64,000 bases of DNA from Mustelus asterias. Its lineage: Eukaryota. Numbering within the stretch: position 1 is the stretch's first letter; every line of letters begins with the position of its first letter. The notes below the pieces were generated by a model. That model was not told where the DNA came from. It did no database searches and worked only from the letters and a program-made list of their open reading frames with translations. The position numbers and the translations under genes were made by a program. This document shows positions 1-60,490 of the stretch, one piece after another. The stretch is from positions 44,392,001 to 44,456,000 of the forward strand of contig NC_135817.1 in NCBI RefSeq assembly GCF_964213995.1. Reading direction: 5' to 3'.

Positions 1-1849
1 TCATTGAACCACTCTCCAGATTCCCCCATTCCAACCAGCCAGGGATTGACCCGGAGTCTCCAGGAATTAAACATTAATCTCCACAATGTTGCTGAGAGCA
101 ACCCAGGAAAAAAAGATCACAAGAATGTTGAAAGGAAAATATTTTCCCCAAGCAAGTTCACTTATTAGTTCTAAAAGTATTGATGGAATAAATGGTTGTT
201 TGACTGAGCATGGCCTTGGAGGCAGAGATCATGTGGTGAAACTGATACATCGAACAGTTGACAACCCTATTCTGCCCTTGTTTCTTATCTTCCTAGCTTC
301 AGGACATTCCTGCTGCAGTAACTGTCTGGCTACCTCTCCTTCTAGAGTGTTGCTGGAATTTCTCGGTCAGGCCATGGGAGGCTCTCTCTTATTGGGGCGA
401 ATCCTGCCAGAAGTATGCTGTGCAAAATGGGTTGAACCCAAGACTGGGAAACTGGGCTATGTTTCGGTTAGTGCCGGAGGGTCAACAAAGTTCTGCTCAG
501 CTAGAACAAAGGTGCTGGATACATAATCCCAGTACCAGTGTCCCAACACTGGTAGACAAACACTTGACCTCGAATCTACCTCAGGCTGCTTGAATTTGGG
601 AATTGCCCAGATGAGGTGCCAATCAAGGCTGCTACCATGAATTGAAAATCTTCCACATAGTTCCTACACAGCCTGTTCAGATAACTTAGGCTGTGCTCAT
701 CCCAATTCAACAATTCCCAAAGTATTAATAACGAATGACAATGAAGCATCTAAACAACTGCTCCGAATTTTCACAAGCTGAAGTGATGTGCACGAAACAG
801 AAATTCTCCAGCTAATTCATTTGAATTTACTCATGTTCCATGAAGCAGAGTTGTTTAGATTTAATTCCTTGTGAGTGGAATTTAATGTAAGAATGTTGTC
901 ATGAATATTAACAACAAGAACAAAGAACAGTAGAGCACAGGCACAGGCCCTTCGGCCCTCCAAGCCTCCACCGATCACATTTACCTATCTAGACCAATCA
1001 CTTATATCCCTTTATTCCCCGTTTGTTCGTACATCTATCAAGATAAGTCTTAAATGTGGCTAACATAACTGCCTTAACCACCTCACTTGGCAGTGCATTC
1101 CAGGCTCCCACCGCCCTCTATGTAAAAAAACTTCCCCCGCACATCTCCACTGAACCTTTCCCCCCTTATCTTGAACTTGTGCCCCCCTTGTAATTGTCAT
1201 TTCTGCTCTGGGAAAAAGCTTCCAACAGTTCAAGTATTCCAGATTTTCCCAAAATGCTTTGCAGCTGTTAAAAGTGCACTTGAATGTATGATCACTGTTG
1301 TAAATTGCAGAATGCAGCAGCCAAATTGCGTACAGAAATATCCCCCAAACGCTAATGTAATAATGACTACATTATCTGTTTTAACAATATTGGTTCAGGG
1401 ATCAATATTGTCCAGGACAGTGTGGGTAACTTCCCTGATCTTCCCTCTGGTATCTCTTACATTCACCTGAGAGGGCAGATGTTTAGCATTTCATCTGCAA
1501 GACAGCAGTATTCGCTCATTACTGCCCTGGCAGTGTCAGTCTAGATTTTACAAACAAGTATCTGGAGTGCGGCTTAAACCCAGAACATTGGTGGAATTAT
1601 ACATGGACAGGATCTTATGGCCCCGTAAAAGTCAATGGACGTTTGAACAGCTCACTACATTTTATAGCTCTGGCCCTACGGGGCTTTAATATTCAGCCTC
1701 TTCTGACTCAGACATGAGAGTGCTACCACTGAGCCACAGCAGACAGGGTAATCCACTGTAACTAATAAACCTCTGTATATTTTAGAGCAGAATACATCAC
1801 AGAATGTTGGTGAACAATTGATGTTTTACTATAATTTTCTATTTCACAG

Positions 1850-2185
1850 GAGAACTCCTGGACGTAGAGACACAAGAAAATATGACAGCAGTTTTAGGTG
1901 GAAATGTTACCTTCAACTGTACTACACATTTAGAAGATATTCTACAGGTCACCTGGCAAAAGATAAACGGTCAATCTGAGGACAATATTGCTACATTTAG
2001 TGACCAGTTCGGATTCCATGTACTTGGATCATTTATCGATCGAGTTGATTTGATTCAATCAGGGGCTCAAGTCTCCTCTATTGTACTATCTGGAGTGGGG
2101 CATGAAGATGAAGGATGTTATCAGTGTGTCTTTACTTCATTCAGAAGTGGCCAAAGTATTGGGACGACCTGCTTCACTGTACATG
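1850..2185 (+). CDS. CD200/OX-2-like membrane glycoprotein, Ig V-set exon A (internal, phase 1-1)
   Basis: Acceptor tttctatttcacAG, donor G|gtatga, 336 nt open. Translation ELLDVETQENMTAVLGGNVTFNC...LQVTWQK...DEGCYQCVFTSFRSGQSIGTTCFTVH matches the recalled CD200 V-domain pattern (VTWQK, DEGCYxCxF, extra Cys in the G strand). Several N-x-T sequons. Signal-peptide exon not in window. Confidence 0.9.
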
Positions 2186-2841
2186 GTATGATAGATACTG
2201 TTGTGAATGTGTGATTGTTTCTGACCAATTTGACAACGAAGGAAAATGATTTCTGAGGTACTTAAACAAATCAATGCAGCTTTATTTACAAAGTGTTGCC
2301 TGATTGAAGACCAACATGGAAGAGATATAAAAACCCATGAATTCCTCTTGTGACATCATAGAATGTAATGTGTCTAATCAGAAACAGGCCGACTGAAAAT
2401 TGAGAGCCTGGCACTAACCAATTAATGACCAAATAATCTGCCTTAATAATGTTCATTAATGCATTTGTATTGACCAGACAGCAGAGGGGGAGAGGGGAAC
2501 TTTTCCACCGTTCTGGATCCAATATGGTATTTCTAACTTTCTCCTGAGAGGGCTGATGCAACGTGTGTTTAGCATCTCATCCGAAAGGCAGCACCTCCAA
2601 TAGCACAGTCCTCTCTCACTACTGTACTGAAAGTGTCAGTCTAGAGTTTGCAGTTAAACTTTGGAGAGCATCTTGAGCCAACAACTCTGTTGGGACTGAA
2701 TGTACAATGATTGAGCTATAGTGACATTCTAAGTCTTCTGCAGGCTGTAAACTTCCGAATACTTCAGAGATAAATGCATTACATAAAACGTTTGTGGAAC
2801 AATTGAGGTGTTTGACTGTCTTCTTTTTTTCCATTTCACAG

Positions 2842-3177
2842 CAAAGGACATATATGTGGAGACACAGGTGAATGTGACAGCGGTTTTAGGTGAAAATGTT
2901 ACCTTCAACTGTACTTCACATGTAGAAGACGTTCTGCAGGTTACCTGGCAAAGGTTAAGTGGAGAATCTGAGGACAATATTGCTACATTTGGTGAAAAAT
3001 TTGAAGCCAATTTTTTTGGGTCATTTATTGGTCGAGCTACTTTCGTATCATCAAAGATGCAAATGTCCACTGTTGTATTATCTGGAGTGAAACTTGAAGA
3101 TGAAGGATGTTATCAGTGTGTCTTTCATACATCCAGAAGTGGCCGAAGTATTGGGAAGACCTGCCTCACTGTACACG
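2842..3177 (+). CDS. CD200/OX-2-like membrane glycoprotein, Ig V-set exon B (paralogous copy of exon A)
   Basis: Acceptor ttccatttcacAG, donor G|gtaaga, 336 nt, phase 1-1. KDIYVETQVNVTAVLGENVTFNC...LQVTWQR...DEGCYQCVFHTSRSGRSIGKTCLTVH; colinear with exon A. Confidence 0.9.
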
Positions 3178-3997
3178 GTAAGACTGAAACAAATGTAAAA
3201 ATAAAAAAAGTTTGAAAGTAAAAAAAGTGAACTACATTATCAAGATCAATAGACTGTAACTTCCTAGTTCCCCAACATCAGATTTGGGGGTGCCCCAAAG
3301 ATACACTAGGGATTCCATCTCTGAAGGGCCTGAATGCAATAACTTCCTCCGGGTAATTGCGCTGCAATGGAACTACCTGAAAATGTGATTTAAATCGTAA
3401 TCTTCGGGTGGTTCCACCCTCCCTACAACTGTTCCCCCCACAGTTATTCCCCCCACTCCGACACCCCCAAGGTTTCCCCTGACCCCTGGCCTCCTGTCAT
3501 AACATGGGTTCTTTATGTTGCTGTGGTGATGTTCGATTGTTGAGATCTTGTGACTTGTATGTTTAAACGTAAACCTCTTTATTGGTGGGCTTTAGCTATT
3601 TACAGTTCCTGTATGCTCATGCATGGCATTAGCTCTACTGTGCAGGCTAGTTGCTTATAGAGTTTTTCTTCAAAACTAATCTCAAATAGGGGGGGATTCT
3701 CTGTGCCCCCCACAATGCGTTCTGCAGCAGTGGGAGGTGGCCTGCTGTTGGCTGACAGTGGAACCTTCTGGCCCTGCTGCTATTGATGGAATTTCCCATT
3801 AACTCCATTCCCCCCCCCCCCACCTCCAGGAAACACGCGGCGGGAGTTCACTGTTGGTGGACCAGAAGATCCCGCCAGCAAGAAAAGCCATAAAATTCCA
3901 GCCTGAGAGTATTTTACCATGTGTCTGTATACATCACACAGTGGGCAGTGCCACTCTCTAGCACCATGTTCACTCTTGCTCTGGCGAGCACACATCA

Positions 3998-4152
3998 AGA
4001 AGTTTAACAACACCAGGTTAAAGTCCAACAGGTTTATTTGGTAGCAAAAGCCACACAAGTGAGGCTACCAAATAAACCTGTTGGACTTTAACCTGGTGTT
4101 GTTAAACTTCTTACTGTGTTTACCCCAGTCCAACGCCGGCATCTCCACATCA
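3998..4152. mobile_element. Short PLE fold-back insertion
   Basis: Inverted arms of the AGAAGTTTAACAACACCAGGTTAAAGTCCAACAGG repeat plus tail ...CCAACGCCGGCATCTCCACATCA. Flanked by a near-perfect duplication GAGCAC(A/C)CATCA. Confidence 0.85.
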
Positions 4153-4745
4153 TGAGCACCCATCACACAGTGAATGGTACCACTTTCCAGTCCTACATTA
4201 ACCCTTGCTCTGCCGAACACCTTTACATTCTAATACATGCAGGCATATATCATCACCCCTGACCTCTGCACCTCCCGCCTACTTGAATTCCATCCACTTA
4301 CCTTTGGCACATACCTTCTCTCTGGCCTGTCAGATTCACTGGGTCCCATTAAACGTAACTGCTTTACAGCAAAACAGGGGATGTGGTCTCCTTGAAACTG
4401 ATGGAGCTGGACTGTGCTGGGGTCTGCGGAAACTCTTTCAATGCAGATCTCAAGCAGTTCTGGCCATTGGGGCTATCCATGTGGTTTTCAAGACCAGGTA
4501 AGTGGGCAATACAGATTTCTAATTCTAGTGAGCCATTTCTTTCTGACACTAATCAGAAGTTATGGCCTATTGAGTTAAATAAAAACCAAAAATGATGAGA
4601 ACACTCAGCAGATCAGTAATTATCTGTGGGGAGAGAGCACAGAGATTACATTTCATATTATTGACCTTTCATCAGAACTCTATCATCCACTGTGCAGCTG
4701 CAATTTTGCAGAGATTTAGGTGCTGTTGCAATCTCCATGGAGACC

Positions 4746-4972
4746 TGTAATAATTCCTGTTCACCAGTTAGGTAAATAACAACTGCAACGTTTATTTATA
4801 GGTAACTATAATACAGAGGCTTGCAGCCTCCTGGCTGTCAGTCAACTTCCAGGGCTAAACTGATACAGAAACCCACACCTGCTTGGGTGATTCTCCCAGC
4901 CTTGCCCCAGATAGATTACCCAGGTCACGTGACCCTCTCGACATATCACCCCATAAAGGGGCAAACACCACA
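4746..4972. mobile_element. Short solo LTR-like insertion (227 bp)
   Basis: TGT...ACA termini with a perfect 5-bp TSD AGACC (4741-4745, 4973-4977). Confidence 0.65.
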
Positions 4973-6142
4973 AGACCGATGACTTTTGAAGAGAAATTCA
5001 AACTTCCAGTTGATAGCTGAAAGAATGACGAGACAAGATTCCATGTTTTAAACCATTTACCATTGTTTCTTTTTTGCAGAAGACCTGTACATTAAGTTAC
5101 AGAGAGGAGCATTCCCCTTTTATACTTACCACGCATTGCACTCTACAGAATTACAATCTTTGTAGCAAATAGTCCATAGTTTTTCCTTGTTTATTCCAGT
5201 CGGTTCCCGTATCTTTGCTTTGCTCAGCAGTAATTTTAAATGACCATCTCCAGATGCCACTAGCAGCAGTAAAGCCTGTTGTGGTGATTTTAAGGCCATG
5301 CCAGAAAAAAGCTCCCTGAATCTATAGAAGGCAGCAGGGCACATCTTTTTGATGAGAGATTCATTTTGGCCACATCTCTGGGTGTGGTCACTCATAAGGT
5401 CAAGCAGTCTCTTTCTCTGCTGACCACACAGAACTGCTGATTATCTGAGAAATTCATTGAGTTGTAAGGAAGCCTGTAACCTGATCTCAAAAATTACTTC
5501 CACATGGCAATGTGTAACCTTGTATCAAGATAAAAATGTTAATTAGCTATCCTTGATCTCACATCCCTTTCATCTTAAGAGTACATGGATAATTTACAAC
5601 ATAATTGCTTATAATTTGAAACCTACAACACCTTTCTGGGATTTTGGGAGACTCTGGCTTTACTAATGGTAAACTCAGAGACTGCTGCCAGTGTTTCCAA
5701 GTGCAAATGCCTTGCAGTTTCTTCTTAACATTCAAACAACCCTGGCTTACTATCAGGCAGACTTCAGAACAGGTCACATGACACCCTTCTTGGCATCAAG
5801 TTGAAAGTTGAGCCATTAAAGTGGGAGAATAAGGGGATGAAGCTAAGGCCTTTGTAGAGGAGTGAACATATGGGGCTCATAGAGGACAAAGGTCATAGTG
5901 TATAGTGAAAATAGGGCAAAGATTAAAATTGGAGGGAAGAATGGGGTCAGAAGAAAATGCAAATGAAGGAGGATCAGGATGGAGTGTGCTTGGTATCTAA
6001 GAATCTTTGAAGCTTGCAGTCCTTGATACTTGAAGTGATAGAAAAGCAGTTTTATTAAAGCTTTGGTTGAAACAGTTCTTGAAATGAAACTGACTAATAG
6101 TTCTGAAGTAAAGTGAGTTAGCTATACTGAAGGTAAACGTCA

Positions 6143-6270
6143 AGTTCTGATGAAAGATTATCAACGTGAAATGTTAATCTGTTTCTCTCTCCACAAATGT
6201 TGCTTGACTTGCTGAAAGTTTTCAGCAATATTTATTTTTATTTCAGATTTCCAGCATCCACAATATTTTG
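6143..6270 (+). repeat. Second interspersed repeat family beginning with a degenerate hammerhead-like motif; copies at 4588-4679(-), 47731-47820(+) and 53190-53405(-)
   Basis: AGTT-CTGATGA-A-stem-GAAA-YGTT-AA followed by TCTGTTTCTCTCTCCACAGATGCT..., shared among the copies. Confidence 0.6.
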
Positions 6271-7463
6271 TTTGTCTAAATTAGTCAAATGACAAACAAC
6301 ACCCAACAACCATATCACCATCCTGGATTTAGCTTGTTTTTGGAAATGTCAAAGCTATGGCATTAGATTTTTCTGGGAAATATGGAAGTTGTGGCATTAT
6401 GTTAATGTTAGACTGGAAAGAGCCTAGAAAGACAAAGCATTCCATGTGAGTATTCAACTGGTTGTGGTAAAGTTGTGTGTGACATAAAACACCATAAACA
6501 TATACTTCAAGCCACAATTCTCCTTAAGATGTTGAATTTATTCCCTCATTTAGAAAGAAGATGCCTTAATATTAGGAATTGCAATGATCTGATCCACCAC
6601 TTCTTCCCATGTAACCCTGACAGACGCCTTTTGAGGAGAGAGTCGTTTACCTCTGAAGCTGATGCTTTTAGATAGCCAGAAGTGTCAGCTCTGCTTTGGA
6701 TCAGCTCCATCAACATAATTTCCAAGGCTCTTTATGAGAAAAGGCTAACCGCTCTAGGCACTTGCAAATTTCCAGCTTGTCCTCCAACAAACCTAGCACA
6801 TAAAGGTACAAAAGTCATCATCAGAGGAAATGCAGATGGCTTTTTAAGGAATAACATCTGCATTTTTAGCCTCTTGCTCTAATTCCTCCCTTCCCCAGGG
6901 CCACCACACTATCTGCTTTTCCAACCAATACTTTCTGCAAATAAGGGAAGATGAACTACCTGTTGGCACATTTCTGGTTTCACCATTCTGTCCATTCTGT
7001 GCACCCCCCACCACCCCCACCCCACCACCCCACAACAACCCAGATCCAGAAGAAATTTTCTTTTAATTTGCTTAGTGGAGGCTCCCATATATTTTGCAAT
7101 CATACAATTGGCTGGATACTGAAGTAACTCCTCAGAGGCAAATCTTGGATGAAAGGGGCTTCCTCTCTTTCCGCTCAAGCAGGGTGATCTGCCAAATTTT
7201 TCCCCCCTCCTTAAACTGCTCCCACCAGCCTCAAGATATGCAGCTGGGCTGCAAGCAGCATGTAAGTAGCCAAAAATTGGCCTCTCGGCCTCATCCAAAC
7301 TCTGTAAATTTACGGACAGGTTGGTGCAGGTGGGAGGGCACCTAAAGGATTTTATTAACCCCCACCACCTCACACTTGTAAAGCTACCATTGGGGAACCA
7401 TAAAATTCTGCTCATCCCAGTTTTCACCAAAGGCATTAATATTTCCCTTTTGTGTTTTTGCAG

Positions 7464-23611: not shown

Positions 23612-23988
23612 ATTCAGAAAGAGTTCACTAGACTGATTACTGGGACAAAAATGTTGTCGTATGAAGAAAGATTGAGCGGGTTGGGTCTATACTCATTCTA
23701 GTTTAAAAGAATAAGAGCTGATCTTATTGAAATATATTAGATTCTAAGGGAGCTTGATGGGGTGGATGCTGAGAAGATGTTCTCCCTTCTTGGAGAGACC
23801 AGAACTAGGAGACACAGTTTAAAAATAAGGGATCTCCTATTTTTGACAGAGATGAGGAGGAATTTCTTCTCTATCGGGGTCATTTGGAATTCTCTTGTTC
23901 AGCAAGTAGTGGAAGCTGGATCATTGGATATAGTAAGAAGTCTCACAACACCAGGTTAAAGTCCAACAGGTTTATTTGGTAGCAAATA

Positions 23989-24025
23989 CCATAAGCTTTC
24001 GGAGCACAGCTCCTTCGTCAGATGG
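23989..24025 (-). ncRNA. Minimal hammerhead motif, mirror copy in the left arm
   Basis: Reverse complement reads CCAT-CTGACGA-A-GGAGC-tgt-GCTCC-GAAA-GCTT-ATGG. Confidence 0.72.
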
Positions 24026-24917
24026 AGTGGATATCTGTTCTCAAACAGTGCAAACAGACACAGAAATCAAATTATAGAATACTGATTAGAATGCAAATCT
24101 CTACAGCCAGCCAGGTCTTAAATGTACAGACAATGTGGGTGGAGGGAGCATTCAACACTGGTTAAAGAGATGTGTATTGTCTCCAGACAGAACAGCTAGT
24201 GAAATTCTGCAAGTCCAGGAGGCAAGCTGTGGGGGTTACTGATAATGTGACATAAATCCAACATCCCGGTTTAGGCCGTCCTCATGTGTGCGGAACTTGG
24301 CTATCAATTTCTGCTCAGCGACTCTGCGCTGTCATGTGTCGTGAAGGCCGCCTTGGAGAACGCTTACCTGAAGATCCAAGGCTGAATGCCCGTGACTGCT
24401 GAAGTGCTCCCCCACAGGAAGAGAACAGTCTTGCCTGGTGATTGTTGAGCGGTGTTCATTCATCCGTTGACGACAACGGATGAATGAACACCGCTCGACA
24501 ATCACCAGGCAAGACTGTTCTCTTCCTGTGGGGGAGCACTTCAGCAGTCACGGGCATTCAGCCTTGGATCTTCAGGTAAGCGTTCTCCAAGGCGGCCTTC
24601 ACGACACACGACAGCGCAGAGTCGCTGAGCAGAAACTGATAGCCAAGTTCCGCACACATGAGGACGGCCTAAACCGGGATGTTGGATTTATGTCACATTA
24701 TCAGTAACCCCCACAGCTTGCCTCCTGGACTTGCAGAATTTCACTAGCTGTTCTGTCTGGAGACAATACACATCTCTTTAACCTGTGTTGAATGCTCCCT
24801 CCACCCACATTGTCTGTACATTTAAGACCTGGCTGGCTGTAGAGATTTGCATTCTAATCAGTATTCTGTAATTTGATTTCTGTGTCTGTTTGCACTGTTT
24901 GAGAACAGATATCCACT

Positions 24918-24954
24918 CCATCTGATGAAGGAGCTGTGCTCCGAAAGCTTATGG
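24918..24954 (+). ncRNA. Minimal type-I hammerhead ribozyme motif in the PLE terminal repeat
   Basis: CCAT-CTGATGA-A-GGAGC-tgt-GCTCC-GAAA-GC-TT-ATGG: stem I CCAT/ATGG, CUGANGA and GAAA core boxes, 5-bp stem II, palindromic AGCT as rudimentary stem III. Confidence 0.75.
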
Positions 24955-26177
24955 TATTTGCTACCAAATAAACCTGTTGGACTTTAACCTGGTGTTGTGA
25001 GACTTCTTACTGTGCTTACCCCAGTCCAACGCCGGCATCTCCACATCATTGGATATTAGCAGGGCTGAGTGGGGCAGATTTTTGATTGACAAGGGAGGCA
25101 AAGTTTAGTGGGTCAGGCAAGAAAATAGAGTTAAGATCATGATCAGATCAGCCATGATTTTATTGAATGGTGAAGCTGGCTTGAAGGGCCAAATGGTCCA
25201 CTTCTGCTCTTACTTCTTATGTTCTTTGATCTAGTGGTCAGTGAATCAGAAGGAGCTTCCAGCATCAGATTTAAAGGGCTGCCACTAGTGCTGCTCACAC
25301 AGTTGGAAGCAGCATCTGTCAATTGTCTGCCCACCAGCTCTGAGAAAAAGCAGCACTGCAGGAAAAGAAGGGGGTGGGGGGCGGGGGTTGGGGTGGAGCA
25401 TGAAGATCTTGAGCAGAATATCTGGCATCAATCTGGTAATTCCCGTGGCAGTTGCCATCCTTAACATCCCTGGATATGAAAATGGAAATAAAAACTGCTC
25501 CTCCAAGGCAACACTCCTGGATCAGAGGGACCTACTCCCATAACATCCACTGCCAGGAACAGTGGAGGAGGTGAGATGTCGGGTGGCCCCATGATGTTCA
25601 CTCTCTGTTTATCTTCCTCGCAGGCTGTTATTGAACAGTGAGAGATTCTCTTACTGCAGGTTGGCAAGAGGAAACCTTGCTGATGGATCTAGCTGAGCCT
25701 GGCTGAGGTGGAAGAGGAGGGTCAGTAGTCATGGGTGCTGCAATATGCTTTAAGGGATAACAGCATACCATCACTTGAAGGGAAGTGTATCATATGATTC
25801 ACCTTCAGTTTCACTTCAGCCTGGGGCAGAACAGAGACACACAGCTGTGCAGCTCTAACGCCCTCGAGGTTTATATACATCTATATTTGTTCACATATGC
25901 CGAGAATGGATAAATGAACCCAAAATGTGTTTGCACAAGCCCTTCTGAGTTACTGATGCCTTTAAATCACTAAAACACACGTGACATGGTGTGCAGCAGT
26001 GATTCCTTCCTAATGATATAGTTCTCAGCCTGGCAGCAAGATTCAGAACAGGTACAATATGGTGAACCATTTTACATCATACTACATGACATGAGATAAC
26101 CAGAGATGTTCTGGCCAGACCATAATGAAGCCACCATGTCAGAGTGTGCTGAATTCACAGCATAGTGAGTGATCTGA

Positions 26178-28900: not shown

Positions 28901-28939
28901 ATCGCTTCTCGGCCTTTTGGCTAAGATCAAGTGTAGTAT
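28901..28939 (+). pseudogene. U2 snRNA 5' fragment (nt 1-39)
   Basis: ATCGCTTCTCGGCCTTTTGGCTAAGATCAAGTGTAGTAT matches the vertebrate U2 5' end from nt 1 and then diverges abruptly. Confidence 0.93.
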
Positions 28940-29231
28940 GGATCGCCTGCACTTGGTTGAGGTCATTAGGTTACGCTGAGGCTTCATATGTTTCATATGA
29001 AGCAATTTTTAAAAGCGGCATCTCGGCCTTTTGGCTAAGATGCAAATGAGCTCAAGTCTTGGAGGAGGATCCTCCCCCTTCTCCAATCAGCTTGACTCAT
29101 GTAGATCAGGCCCAGGACAGGGTGGTTTTGGTCTCCCGTCCTGTCTTGTCAGCCTGGATCTGAAATGTCTCAACTTGTTGAGACTCTGAATTGGATTTGA
29201 TTTGATTGAATTGGAAAAGTATTTTTAAAAA
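28901..29231 (+). mobile_element. U2-headed structured retro-insertion (candidate SINE or chimeric retrocopy)
   Basis: U2 head, a second U2 stem-loop I copy at 29021-29041, several hairpins, a short A-rich end, flanked by TTGT (28897-28900, 29232-29235). Confidence 0.65.
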
Positions 29232-30384: not shown

Positions 30385-30903
30385 TATCAGAAAATTCCTA
30401 CAGTGCAGAAAGAGGCCATTCAGCTCATCGAGCCTGCACCGACAACAATCCCACCTAGGCCCTATCCCCAAAACCCCACATACTTACCCTGCTAATCTCC
30501 CTGATACTAAGGGGCAATTGAGTATGGCCAATCAACCTAACCCACACATCTTTGTACTGTGAGAGGAAACCCATGATGTGGAGATGCCGGCGTTGGACTG
30601 GGGTAAACACAGTAAGAAGTCTCACAATACCAGGTTAAAGTCCAACAGGTTTATTTGGTAGCAAAAGCCACTAGCTTTCAGAGCACTGCCCCTTCGTCAG
30701 GTAAGACTTACCTGACGAAGGGGCAGCGCTCCGAAAGCTAGTGGCTTTTGCTACCAAATAAACCTGTTGGACTTTAACCTGGAGGAAACCCACACAGACA
30801 CATGGGAGAATGTGCAAACTCCACACAGACAGTTACCCAAGGCCAGAATTGAACCTGGGTCCCTGGCATCATAAGGCAGCAGTGCTAACCACTGTGCCAC
30901 CAT
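30385..30903 (-). mobile_element. V-SINE split by a PLE insertion
   Basis: SINE consensus on both sides of 30574-30781. Confidence 0.82.
30574..30781. mobile_element. PLE fold-back insertion (tail on the left) inside a V-SINE, hammerhead cores at the centre
   Basis: Inverted arms centred at about 30705. CTGACGA-A-GGGGC-agc-GCTCC-GAAA-GCTA-GTGG at 30712-30744. Flanked by GAGGAAACCCA on both sides. Confidence 0.85.
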
Positions 30904-31323
30904 GTGAGATGGCCGTTAACTAGAATATCTACATTCCAATTATGAAAACCCAAGAGCCCTGGCCTCACTCAAGAAGCATGGCTGTGTAGCTTACTTGATG
31001 TGCCGTCTCAACCTCATGATTCTTTTGTGTATTTAGATGTTTTGCCTTGTACAGTTGTCAAAGTGTCCAATCCTGATACACTGAAAACATTGGGTTGAAA
31101 TTGCAGGACATTGAATGGACTGGAATGTGAGGTTTCCTTTGTACCACAGTTTACTTTCTTCTATCTATACATGGAGTTTAGGCTACCTAACAATCTGGAT
31201 AGCTTTCTCAGGGATTAAATCTTCCTTCATTTGCAGCATGTCACAGACTGTGTCATTCGCTACTCTAACAACTATGCTATTCCTGATAAGTTCACATTTT
31301 AGGTCTCTGTATTCACATTTTTA

Positions 31324-31468
31324 TGATGTGGAGATGCCGGCGTTGGACTGGGGTAAACACAGTAAGAAGTTTAACAACACCAGGTTAAAGTCCAACAGGT
31401 TTATTTGGTAGTTTGGTACAAATAAACCTGTTGGACTTTAACCTGGTGTTGTTAAACTTCTTACTGTG
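31324..31468. mobile_element. Short PLE fold-back insertion
   Basis: Tail plus inverted arms. TSD TTCACATTTTTA (31312-31323, 31469-31480). Confidence 0.85.
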
Positions 31469-37220: not shown

Positions 37221-37409
37221 AACGATTCTATGAATGATTTAGCCTGCCCAGTTCTGCATGATTGGGAAATTTATTGGTCGTGCCTCATACCAACAAAAAA
37301 GGGTGGAGGGAGGCCCCTTCTGTTTGATATGTGTTTTCTTTGGGCTGCCCAGTATTCCCCTTGATAGAATGCCGTGTTAGTGAGTGCAGCTCTGGGGAGA
37401 GGGGGGGAT

Positions 37410-37500
37410 ACACAGTAAGAAGTCTCACAACACCAGGTTAAAGTCCAACAGGTTTATTTGGTAGCAAAAGCCACTAGCTTTCGGAATAGGCTGTTCCTTC
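37410..37500 (-). mobile_element. PLE terminal fragment abutting the ARL13B promoter
   Basis: ACACAGTAAGAAGTCTCACAACACCAGG...CTAGCTTTCGGAA. Flanked by a 13-bp duplication GAGAGG(G/A)GGGGAT. Confidence 0.8.
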
Positions 37501-37514
37501 AGAGAGGAGGGGAT

Positions 37515-37960
37515 CCCAGTGTTGCAGCCAGCGCGCGCGGGCTCAAGCTGCCGATGACGTCACCGGGACGACGCTGGAACCTGGCAACCCGCTTAGCAAC
37601 AGGCGCCGGGGTAACGGGGAGGAGGCGGGGATACCCGGATAAACACAGCGAGTGGGAGCAGCGGCCATGGGTGGGAGGTAAGTGCCGTTTCTCCTCTGGC
37701 TAACCTCGGGGGCAGGGGTGGAGGGGCAAGGTCCTGGGCCTTGCCGTGTCGGGAGCGCTAAGTTACAGAGACAGATGGCGGCTTGGATTCGCGGCCCAGG
37801 CCCCGGGATAGGGCATCTTTCTTTGTGTCGATTGCCGGGCCTTTGTGTGTGCCCGGAGCAGCACCGAGCGGCTGGAGGGGACCCCCGGACTTTAGCAGCG
37901 GCCGCTTGTCAGCTTCAGGCCGGCCAGTGTGCCTGAGCTTTGCTGCAGCCAGTGGACACT
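37515..37960 (+). promoter_or_regulatory. CpG-island promoter of ARL13B with CRE, RFX/X-box-like half sites and a GC box
   Basis: The only CpG-rich non-TE stretch in the window. TGACGTCA at 37555-37562; CTGGCAAC at 37581-37588 and CTTAGCAAC at 37592-37600 (RFX half sites, typical of ciliary genes); GAGGCGGGG at about 37622-37630. Confidence 0.75.
37600..37677 (+). other. ARL13B: ARL13B upstream first exon (start approximate) containing an ATG at 37667
   Basis: Consensus donor GAG|gtaagt at 37677/37678 inside the CpG island. The exon holding the canonical ATG starts with an acceptor (47591), so it needs an upstream exon. Confidence 0.7.
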
Positions 37961-38620: not shown

Positions 38621-40910
38621 GTCCTTTGTTATCATCACACTTTTCTGGTCCCCTTTTAACTGTCCTCATGGACAAAAGTTTTTTTTTGCATTAATTATAT
38701 CATTTCTAGAAGTGTATTTTCAGCAGCTTTCCACTTTTCCTGCTCCTTCTGACTTTTCTCCAATGATTTGTTCTAACATTGTATTTTCCAAACCAAGATT
38801 TGCCCAAAGTGAAGCTGGAGCTTCTATAGGATGTACAACAGCACTGAAACAGAACGTTTAATCCAACAAACCTGTGCTACTGTTTACATTTCACACTAGC
38901 GTCTTCCTGTTCGATCTACCTCTCATGTATCATCTCTGCCTTTCAGCATATTTATTTTCCATTTTCTATCATGTATTTGTCTTGCTTTCTTTTCTTTAAA
39001 ATATCCAAGCTAGTTGCTCAACCACTTCTTGTGGTAAAGAGTTCCATTCTCTTAGTAAAGCAATTTCTTTTGAAATCCCTCCTGGATTTGTTAATAACCA
39101 TCCTGTATTTATGGCTCCTAGTTTTGGATTCCTCCCACACCTGTAAGTCATCTCTTTTCTAAAGAAAAATCCAAACCGATTCAATCTCCCTTGGTCACTA
39201 ATCTTAGTTCTGGTACCATCCTTTTAATTGCTTTTTATACCTTCTCCAGCATTCTCTCATTTCTTTTTATTGTATGCCGATCAGAATTGTGCACTCTTCA
39301 CTCTTGAGTGCAGTCTGACCAGGAACCAAGTTTAACATAACTTCACTATTTTTGAATTCTATTGCTGACTTACTTGATATAAGTGCACTCTGGGCTGTTG
39401 TTGATTGAATATTTTTAATCTTTAAAAAAATATAGTTTTATTCTTTATTTCAAATCTTCTGAGAACTTTGAATCCTATCCAAGGTTCACTGCAATGGGAG
39501 AGTTCATTCTTTTGCCACAGTTTTGGCCAACTGGCGCCTCTGAAACTACATGTGGCTCCTTTGTGGCTGAAATCTGGCCCTTTGACTGCTATACATAGTT
39601 TTCTTCTGTTCTGGGGCTATGTTTAGTTCCCCTGCCCATGTACTCAATACTGATGTAAGAGGTGAAGAATAGGAAAGAATGCAGTTGGCAAAATATAATA
39701 GCTTCCTTCATGAAGTTTATCAGTGTACCCTATTTGGCATTTAATTGTAAGATATTAACAAATTTGCTGCATATTAATTGTGAAAAACACCTTCAGACAT
39801 CTCAAGAATGGATTAAGCTGCTATATATACACGTGTTCTCTTTTTACAAAAATTCTGTTGTGCTCACTAATATACTGTGGCTCCAGTTAAGCAATGCCTC
39901 AGTTTTAAAATTTGCTTTCTTATATTCGAATCTCTTCATGGTTTCACTCCCTTCTTATCTCTGTAATCTTCTGCAGTCCTATAATCCTACAGGGTATCTG
40001 TGTTATTTCAATTCTGATATCTTATGTATCTGCAAACTTAATCGTTGCACTATTAGCAACCGTGCCTTCAATTGCTGAGGCTCTCAACTCTGGCATTCTC
40101 TCCCTGAATCCTCTATTTCTTTAACACTTTCCTCTTTTAAGACTGTCATTAAAACCTATCACTCTGACCAAGCTTTTGGTTATCTGGCTCTCTAATATTT
40201 TGTGCCCTATTATGTGTCTTTTGGATGCGATGCTAAACAGAGCCACCGTCTCCTTCCTCAGGTGAATGAAAGAGATCCCATGGCAGTATATCAAAGAAGA
40301 GTAGGGGAGTCTCTCCTCGGTGTTCGATTGGATTATGTTGATTTAGGCTTTCATTCATTATGATAGGCTATCTGTTCATTATCACATTGTTTTCAGTGCC
40401 CAAGTTGGCTACAGTATTTCCTATGTTACAGTAGTGACTACGCTTCTAAAATGACTTCTTAGGCTGTAAAGCACTTTGGATGTCTTGAGGTCATGAAAGG
40501 TGATACATAAACTCGAGTCATCTTTTTTCTTTACATGGTTCAGAAACCAATTTTGTTTGATAACAATCCTGTGAAGCAACTTGGGATAGTTTACTATATT
40601 AATGAAGCTACTTAAAGGCAGTTTGTCATATGTGCCATAAGAACTGGTGCAGTCCTTCACTATTTTGATTTTGATTTGATTTATTATTGTCAAATGTATT
40701 AGTATACAGTGAAAAGTATTGCTTCTTGTGCACTATACCGATAAAGCATACCATACATAGAGAAGGAAAGGAGAGAGTGCAGAATATCATGTTACATCAT
40801 AGCTAGGGTGTAGAGAAAGATAGTTTAAAAGAGTTAGAATGAAGTTTTAGAAGTATAGAACGAGAGTAAAAAATAGAATTACAAAGTATGTTGGGCATTA
40901 TCACAATACA

Positions 40911-41183
40911 GTAAGAAGTCTCACAACACCAGGTTAAAGTCCAACAGGTTTATTTGGTAGCAAATACCATAAGCTTTTGGAGCGCTGCTCCTTTGTCAGA
41001 TGGAGTGGAAATGTGTGTGGAAATGTGGAAAGAGTGGAAATGTGCATTTCCACTCCATCTGACGAAGGAGCAGTGCTCCGAAAGCTTATGGTATTTGCTA
41101 CCAAATAAACCTGTTGGACTTTAACCTGGTGTTGTGAGACTTCTTACTGTGTTCACCCCAGTCCAACGCCGGCATCTCCACAT
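40911..41183. mobile_element. PLE fold-back insertion adjacent to the hAT element
   Basis: Inverted arms with a hammerhead motif. 15-bp duplication CATTATCACAATACA (40896-40910, 41184-41198). Confidence 0.87.
41055..41091 (+). ncRNA. Minimal hammerhead motif in a PLE fragment
   Basis: CCAT-CTGACGA-A-GGAGC-agt-GCTCC-GAAA-GCTT-ATGG. Confidence 0.72.
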
Positions 41184-41199
41184 CATTATCACAATACAC

Positions 41200-43448
41200 C
41201 AGTGGTTCCCAAAGGGTGTGACGCGCCACACTGGTGCGGCGAGAGAGGATGGCAAGTGTGGCGGGAAGATTCAAAGACAATCAAAGAAACATTCAAACAT
41301 GAATAGATATTTTTCCAAAGTGAGAGCAAGAGCACCAAGTGATGCTGATCACATTGTGATCCAGAATCATCGTTCGGACAGAGTGCTGAAGAAGAGTTGT
41401 TTAATTCTACACCAGTAGCAGGCCCAAGCAAACCTCCAAAAAAGAAAGTTTGTCGACAATATATGGATAGCTATCTGAGTCTCGGTTTCACATGGACTGG
41501 AGATGAAAACGTACCTCGGCCTATGTGTTTGATCTGTGGTGAGAAGCTTTCCAATTCCAATATGGTCCCAAGCAAGATGAAAAGACATCTGTTGTCAAAA
41601 CATGGAAATCTGGCAAACAAGGATGTTCAATATTTTAAAAGGCTTTTGGAACAGCAGAAATGCCAACAATCATATTTCGAAAAACGAATGACAGTCTCAG
41701 ATAAGATGCAGATTGTATCTTACCAAGTGGCTGAATTGATTGCTCAACAGACAAAACCTCATACAATAGCTGAAAAATTGATTCAGCCTGCCTGCAGCTT
41801 GATTGTGAAAACTTTGGTGATGATGCTGAGCGAGAAGTTATGGAAATTCCTTTGTCTGATAATACAATTCGCAGAAGAATAGTTGATATGTCAGTTAATA
41901 TTGAGAAGCGTGTTTCCGAAAGTATGAAGAATTCTAAATTTGCCATTCAAGTTGATGAATCGACCAACATTAGTGGAAAAGCACAGTTGCTTGCCTATAT
42001 CAGATTCATTCACAATGACGAAATAATCTCACAGTTTCTATTTTGCAAGGAACTTGAAAAACATACCAGAGGACAAGATATTTTCCAAACCTTGTCTGAG
42101 TATTTGGAAAAAGTTGAGATTTCATGGGATTCTTGTATTGGAATTTATACGGATGGAGTGCCATGTATGATAGGGAATGTGAGAGGCTTGGCGGCACTCA
42201 TCAAACAGAAAAATCCAGGTGTAATATCAACTCACTGTTTTTTACACAGAGAGGCATTAATCACCAAGACCCTTGTAGCTGATTTGAAGTTGGTTCTAGA
42301 TCAGACTGTGCGCATTGTGAACTTCATCAAAGCAAAATCACTAAAGGCGCGGTTATTTGCTCAACTCTGCAAAGACATGGAATCAAACCATCAATACCTA
42401 ATTCTGCACTCGGAGGTTCGCTGGATGTCCCGCGGAAAAGTTTTAAATCGGGTGTTGGAACTGAAGAACGAATTAAGAGAATTTTTGGAACAAGAAGGGA
42501 ACCCATTGTACCACCAACTGGATGACAGACTGGTGTGCAAAGCTGGCATATTTGCCCGATATCTTTTCCCGGTTGAATGTGCTCAATGCCAGTATGCAAG
42601 GCCACGATGACAATATCCTCACAACTACAGACAAACTAACTGCGTTCAAAAAAAAAGCTTTCAGCTCTGGCTCGGAAGAGTGATGCAACGTAACCTCAAT
42701 GTTCCCACTTTTAAAATGAGTAATGAATTGTACGGCCTCATACAGGAACATCTTGCAACACTGGTAGAAAAGATTGATCATTACTTCCCATCGTTGTCTA
42801 CAGAAAAATTCGACTGGGTTAGAGACCCCTTTGCGAATTCCAGCTGTTCAGGTCTGACATTGGATGAGGAGGAGGAAATGGCCTTCATTTCGAGTGATCG
42901 CACCTTGAAAATGAAACACGGGAGTATGCCATTGGACTCCTTTTGGATATACAATCAGAAACCGTATCCACGCATCTCTTCAAGAGCATTAACTATTCTT
43001 CTACAGTTCTCCACGACATATTGTGAACAGGGATTTTCAGCTCTGACAAATATCAAAGACCAGAAAAGAGAGAGGCTTCTTTGTGTTGATGAGGAGATGA
43101 GAGTTTGTTTGTCTCAAATTAGACCTAATATAAATAAGATTACCCGACAAAAACAAGCTCACACCTCTCATTGAGTTTGTATACTTACTTAAGGTTACAT
43201 ATGTAAGAGGCTCGTCTATAAGTATGTTTTGGGAATGAATCATGTTTTTATGTAGCTGCATTGTCTTATACTTTCTGGATGTCCCATGATCATGTTATAA
43301 AGTAGTTGTGTTCTATGTTATGAATCAAGCACTGCTAGGAGTTTTTTTTGTTTTTGAATGTATTTCTTATCAATAAAAAATTTGGTGTGGTGCAAGCAAA
43401 TTTTTATTCCAAAAGTGCGGCCCAGTGAAAAAAGTTTGGGAACCACGG
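41200..43448 (+). mobile_element. Full-length hAT DNA transposon, Buster/Charlie group
   Basis: TIRs CAGTGGTTCCCAAA (41200) and TTTGGGAACCACGG (43435-43448), 13/14 match. Perfect 8-bp TSD CAATACAC (41192-41199, 43449-43456) with central TA. Internal transposase. Confidence 0.95.
41299..43174 (+). pseudogene. Frameshifted hAT transposase (ZBED5/SCAND3/Buster-like)
   Basis: Split over at least four ORFs. BED finger CLIC...KRHLLSKH, basic PPKKK, catalytic motifs QVDEST, YTDG, HCFLHRE, EVRWMS and C-terminal TTYCEQGFS. Confidence 0.92.
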
Positions 43449-47654: not shown

Positions 47655-47713
47655 ATGTTCAGTCTGATGGCTAACTGCTGCACCTGGTTAAAACGTTGGC
47701 GAGAACCTGTCAG
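47655..47713 (+). CDS. ARL13B: ARL13B first canonical coding exon (exon spans 47591-47713)
   Basis: [20 protein letters not shown], nearly identical to the vertebrate ARL13B N-terminus including the palmitoylated CC. 59 coding nt, donor AG|gtatc, acceptor ctcgttgcAG at 47590. Confidence 0.96.
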
Positions 47714-53615: not shown

Positions 53616-53855
53616 CATCTCTTTAACCTGTGCTTAATGCTCCCTCCACTCACATTGTCTGTATCTTTAAGACCTGGTTGGCTGTAGAGATTCGCATTCT
53701 AATCAGTATTCTGTAACTTGATTTTGTGTCTCTGTGCCCTGTTTGAGAGCAGATTTCCACTCCATCTGACAAAGGAGCAGCGCTCCGAAAGCTAATGGCA
53801 TTTGCTACCAAATAAACCTGTTGGACTTTAACCTGGTGTTGTTAAAACTCTTACT
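53616..53855 (+). mobile_element. PLE 3' region, single arm, related subfamily
   Basis: Colinear with 24771-25011. Hammerhead core mutated (CTGACAA), stem I CCAT/ATGG retained. Lacks the tail. Confidence 0.82.
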
Positions 53856-54539
53856 AGATTATATATGCAGGGTAAGTCTCTTTGTGAGGTGTGGTCCTCC
53901 ATCCTGAATTCCTGGCAGGGCCGTGTGATATTCCCTAAAGCTCCCCAAACTGATGCTGCTTTTGCACCTGTACCCCCTCTTCCTATAGCCAGTAAGGAGT
54001 GGCCAATATCACAGTTATCCATCAATAACGCAAATACTTCTCAATGCTGGCAAGATAGTTGAAATGTCAAAAATAGCACAATTTCAAATGCTGATCATAA
54101 AAGCTCCTTTAACTGTCCAGAAAGACACCGATGATCTGACTACTTGCAAATGAGTGTCCCATATCTTTAGCACGCAGTACAACTGTATGGGTCCAGCACT
54201 GAACATTCATGCTGAGCTCACCTGTTTTTGAAAGGAATTCCATTCACTTATAACTAGGCTTTGATGGCAGTCGGCAGATAGACAAGGATGGGGCAGTAAG
54301 TTTAGCACTTGAGTTTTCAAGCACTACTACTACATTCGTGCCTGATAAGGGATTGAAAACTGGTTCTAATGTACGTATTAAGAATATGATTGTGATTTCT
54401 AATTGGTTTTATTATATGTAAGATTCCATTTGGGGTCGATGCTGGAGCGGAGAAATGGGTTTAAAATGTTGAAAAAAGTAGCAGTTGGAAGTTCTTCATT
54501 GACCCATGGAGTATGCATACTTATTCTTTTCTTTTGCAG

Positions 54540-54789
54540 AATCTCTGGAAGATATAGCTCCCACAGTGGGTTTTTCAAGAATTGATCTAAAACAGGACAA
54601 GTTTGAAGTCACCATCTTTGATTTGGGAGGAGGAAAAAGAATTCGTGGTATCTGGAAGAACTATTATGCTGAGTCTTTTGGTGTTGTTTTTGTTGTGGAC
54701 TCCAGTGATGTTGATCGAATAGAAGAAGCCAAAGATATTGTAGCAGAGGTCATAAGGCATCCTCGGATATCAGGGAAACCTGTACTAGT
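54540..54789 (+). CDS. ARL13B: ARL13B coding exon 3 (switch I/II); gene continues beyond the window
   Basis: Acceptor cttttgcAG, donor GT|gtaagt, 250 nt. [57 protein letters not shown]...[16 protein letters not shown] (Gly in place of the catalytic Gln) is diagnostic of ARL13. Confidence 0.97.
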
Positions 54790-57700: not shown

Positions 57701-60391
57701 AAATGAAAAGTTCACACCTCGTCTCCTCCTTTGAACCTCATTCAAAGCAGTTTATGTTCTGTTCATTGTTACGAGGTTGCCTTAGATAAATATCTATTTG
57801 AAGTGTTGCTAGGCTCATCAGTATATCAAAAGCACTAGTTCTATTAGCATAACCAAACTGTCCCTGCCTTAAGCAGCTATTTCCATACTTTTTGAAAATA
57901 TATAACAGAAAATATTGCAATTTATTGGATTTCCCCTAATATGCTCATGCAATTGCTATTTTTCCTGACAGTCTTGATATTTATAGAAGATAAACAAAGG
58001 GAAAACTAACTTTTCTATCCATTTGAATTAATTCCACCCATTTGAAATGGCTGAGAAGCATTTGCATTTCTTTACAGATCATTAAAAAGTGCTATCACTT
58101 CATGATTCCTTGCCACAAATTTTCAGACCTTTTTTACCTTTGGTGACTAATTTCAGATTTATTTGTCTTTGGCCACTGTCAATCCTGCAATAAAATCATT
58201 TTCAAGTTATTACAATGTTAAGTATAGCTGCAGTTTCTCATTTATGGTACCGAATATAGTGACCTTGTGATCTGAAACAGGACAGAAAACTGTCATTCCT
58301 GCACCCACCAGCAGAGAAATAATATGATTTAATTCTGATTATCTGAAGTTGTTCAAATTGGCTCATTTGAATCCGTACTTAGGCAAAATCAGCTGCATTT
58401 TCAAAGAGTAAACTGGCCATCATGGGTCCCACTTGTGGAACTAGGAACAGAGATTTGGTATTTTTTATTTCTTTCCGGGGTGAACTGCCACAAAAACTCT
58501 GCAGAATTTATGTAGATAGTCCAGCTATCTGTACAATGTAGATTGGTCTACACCAAGCCTCTTATTGCCCATTCATTCATCTTGACTTTGCACACCTAGT
58601 GGTGTCATCTCAGCAAAGCAATCTGATGATATCACTTGCCCTCCTTTTAGATTGTAGCCTTGTGTTCCACCTAATTTAGGATTTAACTTCCTGATATCTA
58701 TTCTGTAACCTGTCGCTACACTGGTACAGGCTCAAAGGATGTGGATTGAACATGTGATTTGGTGAGGGATTTGCCTTCACACTGAAGGACATCAGAGGAA
58801 CACCATAGAAAGTAATCATTGTAAGCAGAAGGGAACTTTATCTGTCAGTAATGTTATCTCATTTCATTCACGTGCAACATATCTATGAAAGCAATTTTAA
58901 AAAAAATAATTTATGGGATGTGGGTTTCGCTGGCTCGCATTTATTGCCCATCCCTACTTTCCCTTGAGAAGCTGGTGGTGAGCTGCCTTCTTGAACCACT
59001 GTGCTGGCTTTGAAGAGGGTCCAGAAGAGGTTAACGAGAATGATTCAGGAATAAAAGGCTTTGGTGTTTGAGGAGCATTTGAGGACTCCGGGTCTGTGCT
59101 CGATGGAGTTTAGAAAGTTGAGGGGGGATTTCATTGAAACTTACAGAATACTGAAAGGCCTGGATAGAGTGGACGTGGAGAAGCTGTTTCCATTAGTAGG
59201 GGAGACGAGGATCCAAGGGCCCAGCCTCAGTAAAGGGACGACCCTTCAGAACCGAGATGAGGAGGACTTTCTTCAGCCAAAGGGTGGTGAATCTGTGGAA
59301 TTCATTGCCACAGAAGGCTATGGAGGCAAAGTCATTGAGTGTATTTAAGACAGAGATAGGTTCTTGATTGGTAAGGGGATCAGATGTTACGGGGAAAAGG
59401 TGGGAGAATGGTGTTGAGAAACATATCAGCCATGATCGAATGGCGGAACAGACTCAATGGGCTGAATGGACTAATTCTGCTCCCATATCGTATGGTCTAT
59501 GGTCACTGCAGTCACCTGAGGTGTATGTGCACCCACAGTCGGGAGGGAATTCCAGGATTTTAACTCAGCGACAGTGAAGGAACGGTTATATTTTTCCAGC
59601 TCAGGGTAGTGAGTGGCTTGGAGGGGAACCTCCAGGTGGGGATGTTCCCCGTTATCTGTTGCTCTTCTGCCACTTGTTTGTCAGTGGTGTAGGGATTGAA
59701 TGTTTGTGGATGCGGTAGCAATCAAGCGGACTACTTTGTCCTGAATTGTGTCGAGCTTCTTGAGTGTTGTTGGAGCTGCACTCACCCAAGCAAGTGGAGG
59801 GTATTCCATTATACTCATGACTTGTGCCTTGTAGATGGTGGACATTGGGGCACCAGGAGATAAGTTACTCGCTGCAGGATTCCTAGCCGTTGACTTGCTC
59901 TGGTAACCACATTATTAATATTAGTCTCGTTCAATTTCTAGTAACCCCTAGGAAGTTGATAGTGGGGGATTCGGTGATGGTGATGTCATTGAATGTTAAG
60001 GGGGATGATTGGATCCTCTCTTGTTGGAGAGGGTCATTGCCAGGCACTTGTGTGGTTACTAATATTTGTTACTTGCTGCTTGTCAGCCTAAACCTGAATA
60101 TTGCCCATGTTAATTTCTAGCTTATCATTTTTAAATGTCTCCATATTAGTGAGTAGTAATTATAAATTCTGTGCAGGGTACATGTTTCAGGTGAAGACAT
60201 CCCCTTCAGTTTCTGACTCCAGTATGACTAATTTTCATTACCATTTTAGAGGCCTCGTCAATAATTTGAACTCAAATTTACTGTGTACTGTATATCACTA
60301 AGAGGAAAATGTGTTTGTCAGATGCTATGTAGGTATGGAATATGTCTCATCTTTGTTAGTATGCTTTGAAATTGCTGCTTTGAATATTGAG

Positions 60392-60490
60392 TAAGAAGTT
60401 TAACAACACCAGGTTAAAGTCCAACTTTAACCTGGTGTTGTTAAACTTCTTACTGTGTTTACCCCAGTCCAACGCCGGCATCTCCACATC
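60392..60490. mobile_element. Minimal PLE fold-back insertion
   Basis: About 30-bp arms around a 3-nt loop plus the tail. TSD TTGAATATTGAG (60380-60391, 60491-60502). Confidence 0.85.

Follow-up and report, generated by a model that had tools for sequence, protein, structure and literature searches.

Minimal type I hammerhead ribozymes have been known from the terminal repeats (pLTRs) of Penelope-like elements (PLEs) since 2014 (PMC4209133), and their role has been termed unclear (PMC8557442). The described motifs combine a CUGANGA core, an unpaired base before stem II, a G10.1-C11.1 pair, a short stem I, a UH cleavage site and a palindromic 15.2/16.2 stem with a location in the pLTR. Several consensus families occur per genome, and motifs lie in opposite-strand pairs 100–700 bp apart (PMC4209133). 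The shark element described here shares all of these traits. Its AGCU palindrome is not new either: the turtle (Chrysemys) motif in Fig. S3 of that paper has the same GAAA-G-C-U-U-AUG, followed by CCAAAUAAA, as in the shark motif. The examined part of Fig. S3 holds no shark row and one searchable supplement has no match to 'shark'; supplement file 1 of that paper and the bioRxiv supplements may hold shark motifs. One chondrichthyan was sampled in bioRxiv 10.64898/2026.07.22.740005.

For PAc, a Poseidon PLE of Anolis (Frangieh et al. 2024, PMC11167929), reverse transcriptase (RT) initiates internally at two sites bracketing a 30–40-nt tail downstream of the hammerhead, both target strands are cleaved and uncut RNA is the main substrate. 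The shark element appears to resemble it in each respect. The PAc hammerhead is assisted by protein, and in vitro insertion does not depend on it (PMC11167929). The PAc ORF starts inside stem II, whereas in a full-length shark copy the ATG lies at the tail end, 97 nt downstream of the predicted cut; the shark element also has a CX4CxxC linker, which Poseidon lacks. The endonuclease-bearing (EN+) Neptune and Nematis PLEs share with it a C-terminal GIY-YIG domain, a CX2-5CxxC linker, partial tandems, an inverted 5'-truncated copy, a one-sided tail and a target-site duplication (PMC8557442, PMC3846280). What is new relative to the available parts of those papers is that the one-tail rule (33/35 pairs) and the modal 12-bp duplication are counted. 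The same papers note TATA and Inr-like motifs in a rotifer pLTR, and in D. virilis the promoter of Penelope is internal and TATA-less, with an intron ahead of the hammerhead (PMC2377424, PMC4209133). Cap-independent translation has been linked to type I hammerheads in the 5' UTRs of viruses (PMC13725137). These are likewise weak motifs without loop–loop contacts upstream of an ORF, with cut and uncut RNA coexisting, but they are monomeric and belong to fungal and plant RNA viruses.

Here we analysed a 64,000-nt stretch of the Mustelus asterias genome (the window), together with copies of the same element elsewhere in that genome. The motif itself is ordinary, and the added value is a census of where copies of the element end; its 5'-end counts point to templates that were for the most part uncut, a subject outside the available parts of PMC4209133.

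The carrier element and its head-to-head insertions

Judged from its sequence, the carrier is a Neptune/Nematis-type EN+ PLE with the hammerhead in its pLTR. A genome search gave 43 matches among 40 scored candidates, most of them 96–99% identical. We extended 14 loci, among them a near-full-length copy, L031, which is a partial tandem (pLTR 3777-4320, ORF 4319-6994, pLTR to 7337) with a hammerhead in each of its two pLTRs. Its ORF has 892 codons with one stop, matches Pfam RVT_1 (1e-07) and contains DKG, GTAMG, YIND (a catalytic-site variant) and YIGET motifs, with the CX4CxxC linker at residue ~754. The GIY-YIG domain was recognized in L031 by the YIGET motif; Pfam itself made no GIY-YIG call there, and relatives of the protein carry PF01541. 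The protein is 74–91% identical to named shark proteins and ~40–43% identical to turtle proteins; a PDB sequence search with the ORF gave zero matches. All EN+ PLE traits are present: a single ORF with RT and C-terminal GIY-YIG domains, pLTRs, an inverted 5'-truncated copy, a one-sided tail and a target-site duplication. A CX2-5CxxC linker before the endonuclease defines Neptune/Nematis rather than Penelope/Poseidon, which have no linker zinc-finger (PMC8557442), and we assign the element to the former type because the linker is present; the assignment stops at the Neptune/Nematis level. Two candidates were discarded. The ORF of another locus (L036) is an unrelated LTR-type pol, and a non-LTR retrozyme would form head-to-tail non-coding arrays, whereas we found 5 direct against 35 head-to-head pairs and long copies that carry ORF sequence.

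The element is abundant. In a random sample of 160 evenly spaced 10-kb stretches from contigs C1–C25 (1.6 Mb in total), an anchor downstream of the motif occurred 124 times and in shuffled DNA 0 times, or ~78 per Mb, which extrapolates to ~285,000 PLE 3' ends genome-wide if the sample is representative. One 21-nt pattern of subfamily A, the window's main subfamily, has 37,858 exact genome matches. The original prediction called the family young. This holds for the window's subfamily, whose two arms differ at 6 of 538 sites and whose best genome matches are 96–99% identical, but not for the family as a whole, for which the median identity to L031 was 86% among matches in the first 0.8 Mb of the sample.

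The hammerheads at 23989 and 24918, which the original prediction listed without stating their relationship, are the two arms of a single head-to-head insertion (Table 1). The arms, 23932-24469 and 24474-25011, are 538 nt long and 99% complementary, and the first 5 nt of the left target-site duplication double as the end of the element tail, a microhomology. This architecture recurred in the random sample, where adjacent copies formed 35 head-to-head, 10 tail-to-tail and 5 direct pairs. One arm was tailed and the other tail-less in 33 of the 35 head-to-head pairs (p=1e-8), and 26 of the 35 were flanked by a 7–14-bp duplication with a mode of 12. In PAc the tail lies between the two RT start sites (PMC11167929), and we infer priming from both DNA ends, one per RT start site.

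Several smaller observations concern the ends of these insertions. In random-sample pairs, 2–5 nt of the target duplication often recur at both the tail end and the tail-less end, and such short target–tail overlaps, common in the shark element, suggest microhomology-assisted priming, unlike the non-homologous priming of PAc in vitro (PMC11167929). Arm junctions (L235, L243, L253, L215 and L219) often hold short repeated re-copies of an arm 5' end, which suggests repeated template jumps of the RT before joining. An AATAAA at 24968-24973(+), ~18 nt past the predicted cut, is a candidate poly(A) signal, and at 24977-25032(+) a predicted stem pairs pre-tail sequence with the tail; it is kept across subfamilies and is a candidate RT-binding structure.

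Hammerhead motifs in the window and their conservation

On inspection of the sequence, all five hammerheads of the original prediction were found, with core, stems and coordinates as given there. Aligning the motifs bore out the stem II loop variants TGT/AGT/AGC, the cleavage triplets CUU and CUA, the difference in stem I between subfamilies (AT..AT versus AC..GT) and the AGCU stem III palindrome, and the motif at 53762 indeed carries a core change, G8A. Three remnants had been overlooked: 30668-30704(-), 40967-41003(-) and 37467-37514(-). The core pattern CTGAYGA-N-GAAA matched at 24922(+), 24021(-), 41059(+), 30712(+) and 30700(-) in the 64-kb window. This loose pattern alone gave 7 matches against 2.5 expected, a number that 1 of 100 shuffles attained, and two of the 7 (4651 and 6147) are without stem II. 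An Rfam scan of the window found zero hammerhead families at E<=10; its microRNA matches were rejected, as they are fold-back pairs. Very short fold-back stubs of the PLE without a hammerhead lie at 4013-4154, 31323-31468 and 60387-60494, and some of them score microRNA-like in Rfam. The window's PLE copies are dead insertions.

Table 1 Features of the hammerhead-bearing insertions in the window
Feature	Position	Strand	Basis
Left copy of 12-bp target-site duplication	23920..23931	+	
Tail-less arm: 5'-truncated PLE 3' end (GIY-YIG coding end and pLTR)	23932..24469	-	
Minimal type I hammerhead, intact core, N7=C, triplet CUU	23989..24025	-	sequence pattern
Tailed arm of the same head-to-head insertion	24474..25049	+	
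Last 75 codons and stop of PLE ORF (GIY-YIG endonuclease end)	24477..24704	+	
Minimal type I hammerhead	24918..24954	+	sequence pattern
Stem I of 24918 hammerhead	24918-21/24951-54	+	
Core of 24918 hammerhead	24922-28	+	
Bulged A of 24918 hammerhead	24929	+	
Stem II of 24918 hammerhead	24930-42	+	
GAAA of 24918 hammerhead	24943-46	+	
AGCU palindrome of 24918 hammerhead	24946-49	+	
H17 of 24918 hammerhead	24950	+	
Predicted cut of 24918 hammerhead	24950/24951	+	
Tail of + arm, ~38 nt, ending where full-length copies have the ORF ATG	25012-25049	+	
Right copy of 12-bp target-site duplication	25045..25056	+	
Hammerhead, left arm of short head-to-head pair, AC..GT subfamily, C11.1 -> T	30668..30704	-	
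Hammerhead, right arm of 30.7-kb pair, triplet CUA, stem I AC..GT	30708..30744	+	
Copy 5'-truncated within hammerhead, directly upstream of ARL13B first exon	37403..37514	-	
Mutated hammerhead, G8A and G12A, antisense arm of intron-1 pair	40967..41003	-	
Intact hammerhead, sense arm of fold-back pair 40905-41187, ARL13B intron 1	41055..41091	+	
Hammerhead with G8A in tail-less 244-nt copy (53616-53859), ARL13B intron	53762..53798	+	

Across the random sample, 90 of the 124 copies had a parsable motif, the other 34 being truncated inside it or too mutated; the parse tolerates one mismatch per core half and is biased to intact cores. Among the 90, N7 is free (C32/T31/A27), H17 is T in 42, A in 28, C in 20 and G in none, and 88 copies have T at U16.1. 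At the first pair of stem I, 61 copies have C-G, 24 have T-A and 5 another combination, and the palindrome's G and C are kept in 89 and 87. Thus, variation between subfamilies obeys hammerhead rules: N7 is free, H17 is never G and the stems covary.

Because the parse favours intact cores, we also aligned 59 copies picked by flanking homology with the core unused, and called a column polymorphic when a second allele occurred in at least 6 copies. None of 11 core columns was polymorphic, compared with 24 of 62 upstream (p=0.012). The genome-wide excess of core over flank conservation that the original prediction proposed to look for was thus found relative to the upstream flank; the region 3' of the motif, part of which was used in copy selection, is also conserved (6 of 52 columns polymorphic). 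A set of 47 distinct motifs has 95.5% of its stem cells paired, a level reached by 0 of 500 shuffles, with slid controls at 29–68%. Only 3 stem pairs change on both sides, which 78 of 500 shuffles equal, so there are few independent covariation events (about four lineage events).

The G10.1-C11.1 pair and the unpaired base after A9 are present as in PLE minimal hammerheads, and the motif is without a stable stem III, having instead the palindromic 15.1-16.1 AGCU. A swapped-dimer fold reaches -18.1 kcal/mol versus 2 x -9.6 kcal/mol for two monomers, and calculation alone thus gives the dimer no advantage. The 137-nt leader, which runs from the inferred RNA start to just past the tail end, folds unremarkably (-34.2 versus -28.0 +/- 3.4 in 100 shuffles), and the hammerhead is absent from its minimum-energy form. 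These comparisons of sequence agree with the original prediction of a minimal hammerhead in a PLE pLTR, apparently under selection in the element lineage, whose palindromic stem III would imply cleavage as a dimer.

Where copies of the element begin

Copy 5' ends were counted with a mapping that replaced a first one, discarded as confounded by partner arms and SINEs. The random sample has 14 copy 5' ends in the 6-nt interval +33..+38, where 3.9 would be expected (p=6e-5; the interval was chosen post hoc). This pile-up, seen in the subfamilies with a TATA-like box, coincides with an initiator-like A (CCA-CTC) that precedes C3 by 6 nt and the cut by ~35 nt. Long copies from subfamilies B, C and E have the box 30 nt upstream of the A, and 12 of 13 long copies assigned to subfamily A lack it; both labels follow the general initiator and TATA consensus sequences. 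In a separate set of exact-motif copies of subfamily E inspected by eye, 17 of 30 end within ~5 nt of the start site, and most long copies have the TATA-like sequence at -30. Subfamily C has a TATAAG-like box yet few ends at the start site (1 of 27). We sought the pile-up in 25 further copies of subfamily A and did not find it there. The evidence for a start at this A therefore comes from TATA-bearing subfamilies and does not extend to A. The window's 30.7-kb pair belongs to the start-site class, its right arm beginning at +1 and its left at +2.

We then counted the base before the initiator-like A genome-wide. Of 83,736 copies of subfamilies B, C and E, 76,604 have the templated C, 4,906 have G and 2,226 have A or T. 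Of the 23 G-junction copies inspected, 22 were true ends; 7 had no partner arm within 150 nt, and at 15 of the 23 junctions an upstream partner arm could supply the G. In the TATA-less subfamily A, 693 of 38,551 copies have a base other than C (by eye, G23/A19/T58 among the first 100). At C3, used as a control, 1,553 of 28,128 are non-C (G39/A20/T41 among the first 100), so that G makes up ~2.2% there versus 5.9% at the start site; a surplus of G is thus also present away from the start site. Ends at the initiator-like A, often after an extra G, are what one would expect if the RT had run off the end of capped, uncut RNA. An extra G through copying of the cap is known for other RTs (PMC4038843), and we found no published report of the start-site and extra-G pattern of PLE copies in the mainly open-access literature. 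The idea of a conserved splice acceptor preceding stem I, like that of D. virilis, was rejected as a general feature because its AG is present in some subfamilies and missing in others.

The footprint at the cut itself is smaller. In the random sample there is no peak, with 3 ends within 2 nt of the cut versus 4.6 expected from neighbouring positions. In genome-wide pattern counts of subfamily A, U16.1 is non-T, and hence non-templated, in 2,688 of 49,395 copies, whereas an equivalent control placed 3 nt further downstream gave 1,178, with a denominator assumed to be similar. There are thus ~2.3-fold more starts at the cut than at the control, in a few percent of copies. By eye, 36 of 100 listed cut-site matches begin with AA and may be hairpins from a 2-nt microhomology, and G-first matches are ~3x commoner than in the control (100 rows each). 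Most copies extend across an intact motif. Probably, then, some templates had been cut but the majority had not, as in PAc (PMC11167929). The earlier statement that self-cleavage processes the element's RNA thus seems to fit a minority of reverse-transcribed RNAs, as the subfamily A excess indicates, and not the majority.

What cleavage may do, and the copies in ARL13B

The motif, a minimal type I hammerhead in the pLTR of an abundant shark PLE, likely occupies the first ~35 bases of the capped RNA, likely cuts a minority of transcripts and is predicted to need a second copy (AGCU:AGCU) or an element protein; we consider this account fairly probable. The pLTR promoter would start RNA at the initiator-like A, 6 nt before C3, helped in subfamilies B, C and E by the TATA-like box at -30, which subfamily A would have lost. 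The element's protein would make a staggered cut of ~12 nt and prime from both DNA ends, each end using a different RT start site of the two flanking the tail, which would yield head-to-head arms, one tailed and one not. When priming falls on the 5' pLTR, the RT would run off the RNA 5' end after ~95–130 nt and would often add a G by copying the cap, and such templates would be uncut; a few percent of templates would have been cut beforehand, and their copies would start at the cut site. The hammerhead would be the first structure of the pLTR transcript, cutting weakly and needing a partner AGCU or protein, because monomers are inactive and dimers weak (PMC4209133) and PAc cleavage is protein-assisted (PMC11167929). 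Cleavage would strip a cap-bearing 35-mer, 97 nt before the ATG; cleavage is therefore most likely a partial switch on RNA fate (translation or stability) that insertion does not require. By analogy with viral 5' UTR hammerheads (PMC13725137), cleavage may play a role in translation.

A further-reaching reading, which we put forward tentatively, is that the genome is a mass fossil record of PLE RNA 5' ends, with thousands of strong-stop-like run-off copies of capped, uncut RNA starting at the hammerhead's 5' edge and a smaller class starting at the cut. In that case the hammerhead would act as a decapping switch, gated by a dimer or by protein, and would direct RNA to either translation or templating, and a protein dimer would prime both DNA ends from two tail sites. 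Hundreds of thousands of copies, in subfamilies that differ in their promoters, turn the role of PLE hammerheads into a matter of counts, and two exact bases can be tested, the one 6 nt before C3 for a capped start and N1.1 for a 5'-OH end.

The proposal of Cervera and De la Pena, in which dimeric self-cleavage routinely turns tandem or read-through RNA into a unit-length, perhaps circular, template, agrees with the conservation of core, H17 and stems across lineages, with the 2.3-fold excess at the cut in subfamily A and with the existence of partial tandems such as L031; a circular template would also let the RT cross the re-ligated site and leave motifs intact. We regard it as unlikely, since copies starting at the cut make up only a few percent, and the many ends just upstream of an intact motif, often after G, are explained by neither a cut nor a circular template. 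Moreover, PAc mutants insert normally in vitro, and the available part of that study reports no RNA-seq ends at the PAc cut (PMC11167929).

A similarly doubtful explanation is that the motif owes its retention to a structural or promoter/RNP role, or is a passenger, and hardly cleaves in vivo, with both 5'-end excesses arising from RT stalling and microhomology fold-back. The G excess at C3, the frequency of fold-back junctions and a truncation rate raised across the whole motif (~0.8% per nt versus 0.1% far upstream) are what it would lead one to expect; Naiad PLEs thrive without hammerheads (PMC8557442), and minimal hammerheads are weakly active in vitro (PMC4209133). However, H17 takes three bases but never G while N7 is free, as catalysis predicts, and stalling should halt the RT 3' of a structure rather than just beyond its 5' edge. 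The pile-up also follows TATA/initiator spacing and is missing in the TATA-less subfamily, and 7 G junctions have no partner arm.

The original prediction placed the copies at 41055 and 53762 in sense orientation within ARL13B introns, and exon mapping and a spliced-contig match agree. ARL13B coding exons lie on the + strand at 47655, 51366 and 54560; we take the gene to be ARL13B on the basis of Arf-family motifs and its earlier label. A 1,738-nt contig of sequencing run X1 (presumed RNA) covers 37646-37679, then an exon at ~47592, then 54538-54789, which puts 41055 in intron 1 and 53762 in a later intron. That the host co-opted these copies to cut ARL13B pre-mRNA is a reading we reject as highly implausible. 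The 41055 motif is intact, sense and in intron 1, and the 53762 copy is also sense and intronic, but at ~78 anchors per Mb several copies per gene are expected, so the intronic copies need no special explanation. In addition, 53762 has G8A, and 41055 is paired with its own antisense arm in a fold-back of -206 kcal/mol (40905-41187), which is predicted to bury the motif in a long pre-mRNA hairpin; a lone minimal motif is not expected to cut in any case (PMC4209133). Both intronic copies are probably inert, and their location is probably incidental.

Three other features of the window were recorded. At 28901-29080(+), a U2 snRNA-derived piece scores 49.3 bits, above the Rfam gathering score, and apparently contains the U2 5' end twice; it is possibly a U2-headed retroelement or a pseudogene. 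ARL13B intron 1 also holds a frameshifted transposase remnant (41349-43174(+)) with a BED-finger-like start and many close copies in sequencing-run contigs, which we take to be a hAT-like DNA transposase. Finally, 1822-3215(+) contains two tandem immunoglobulin V-like exons, 78% alike, that presumably resemble CD200/OX-2.
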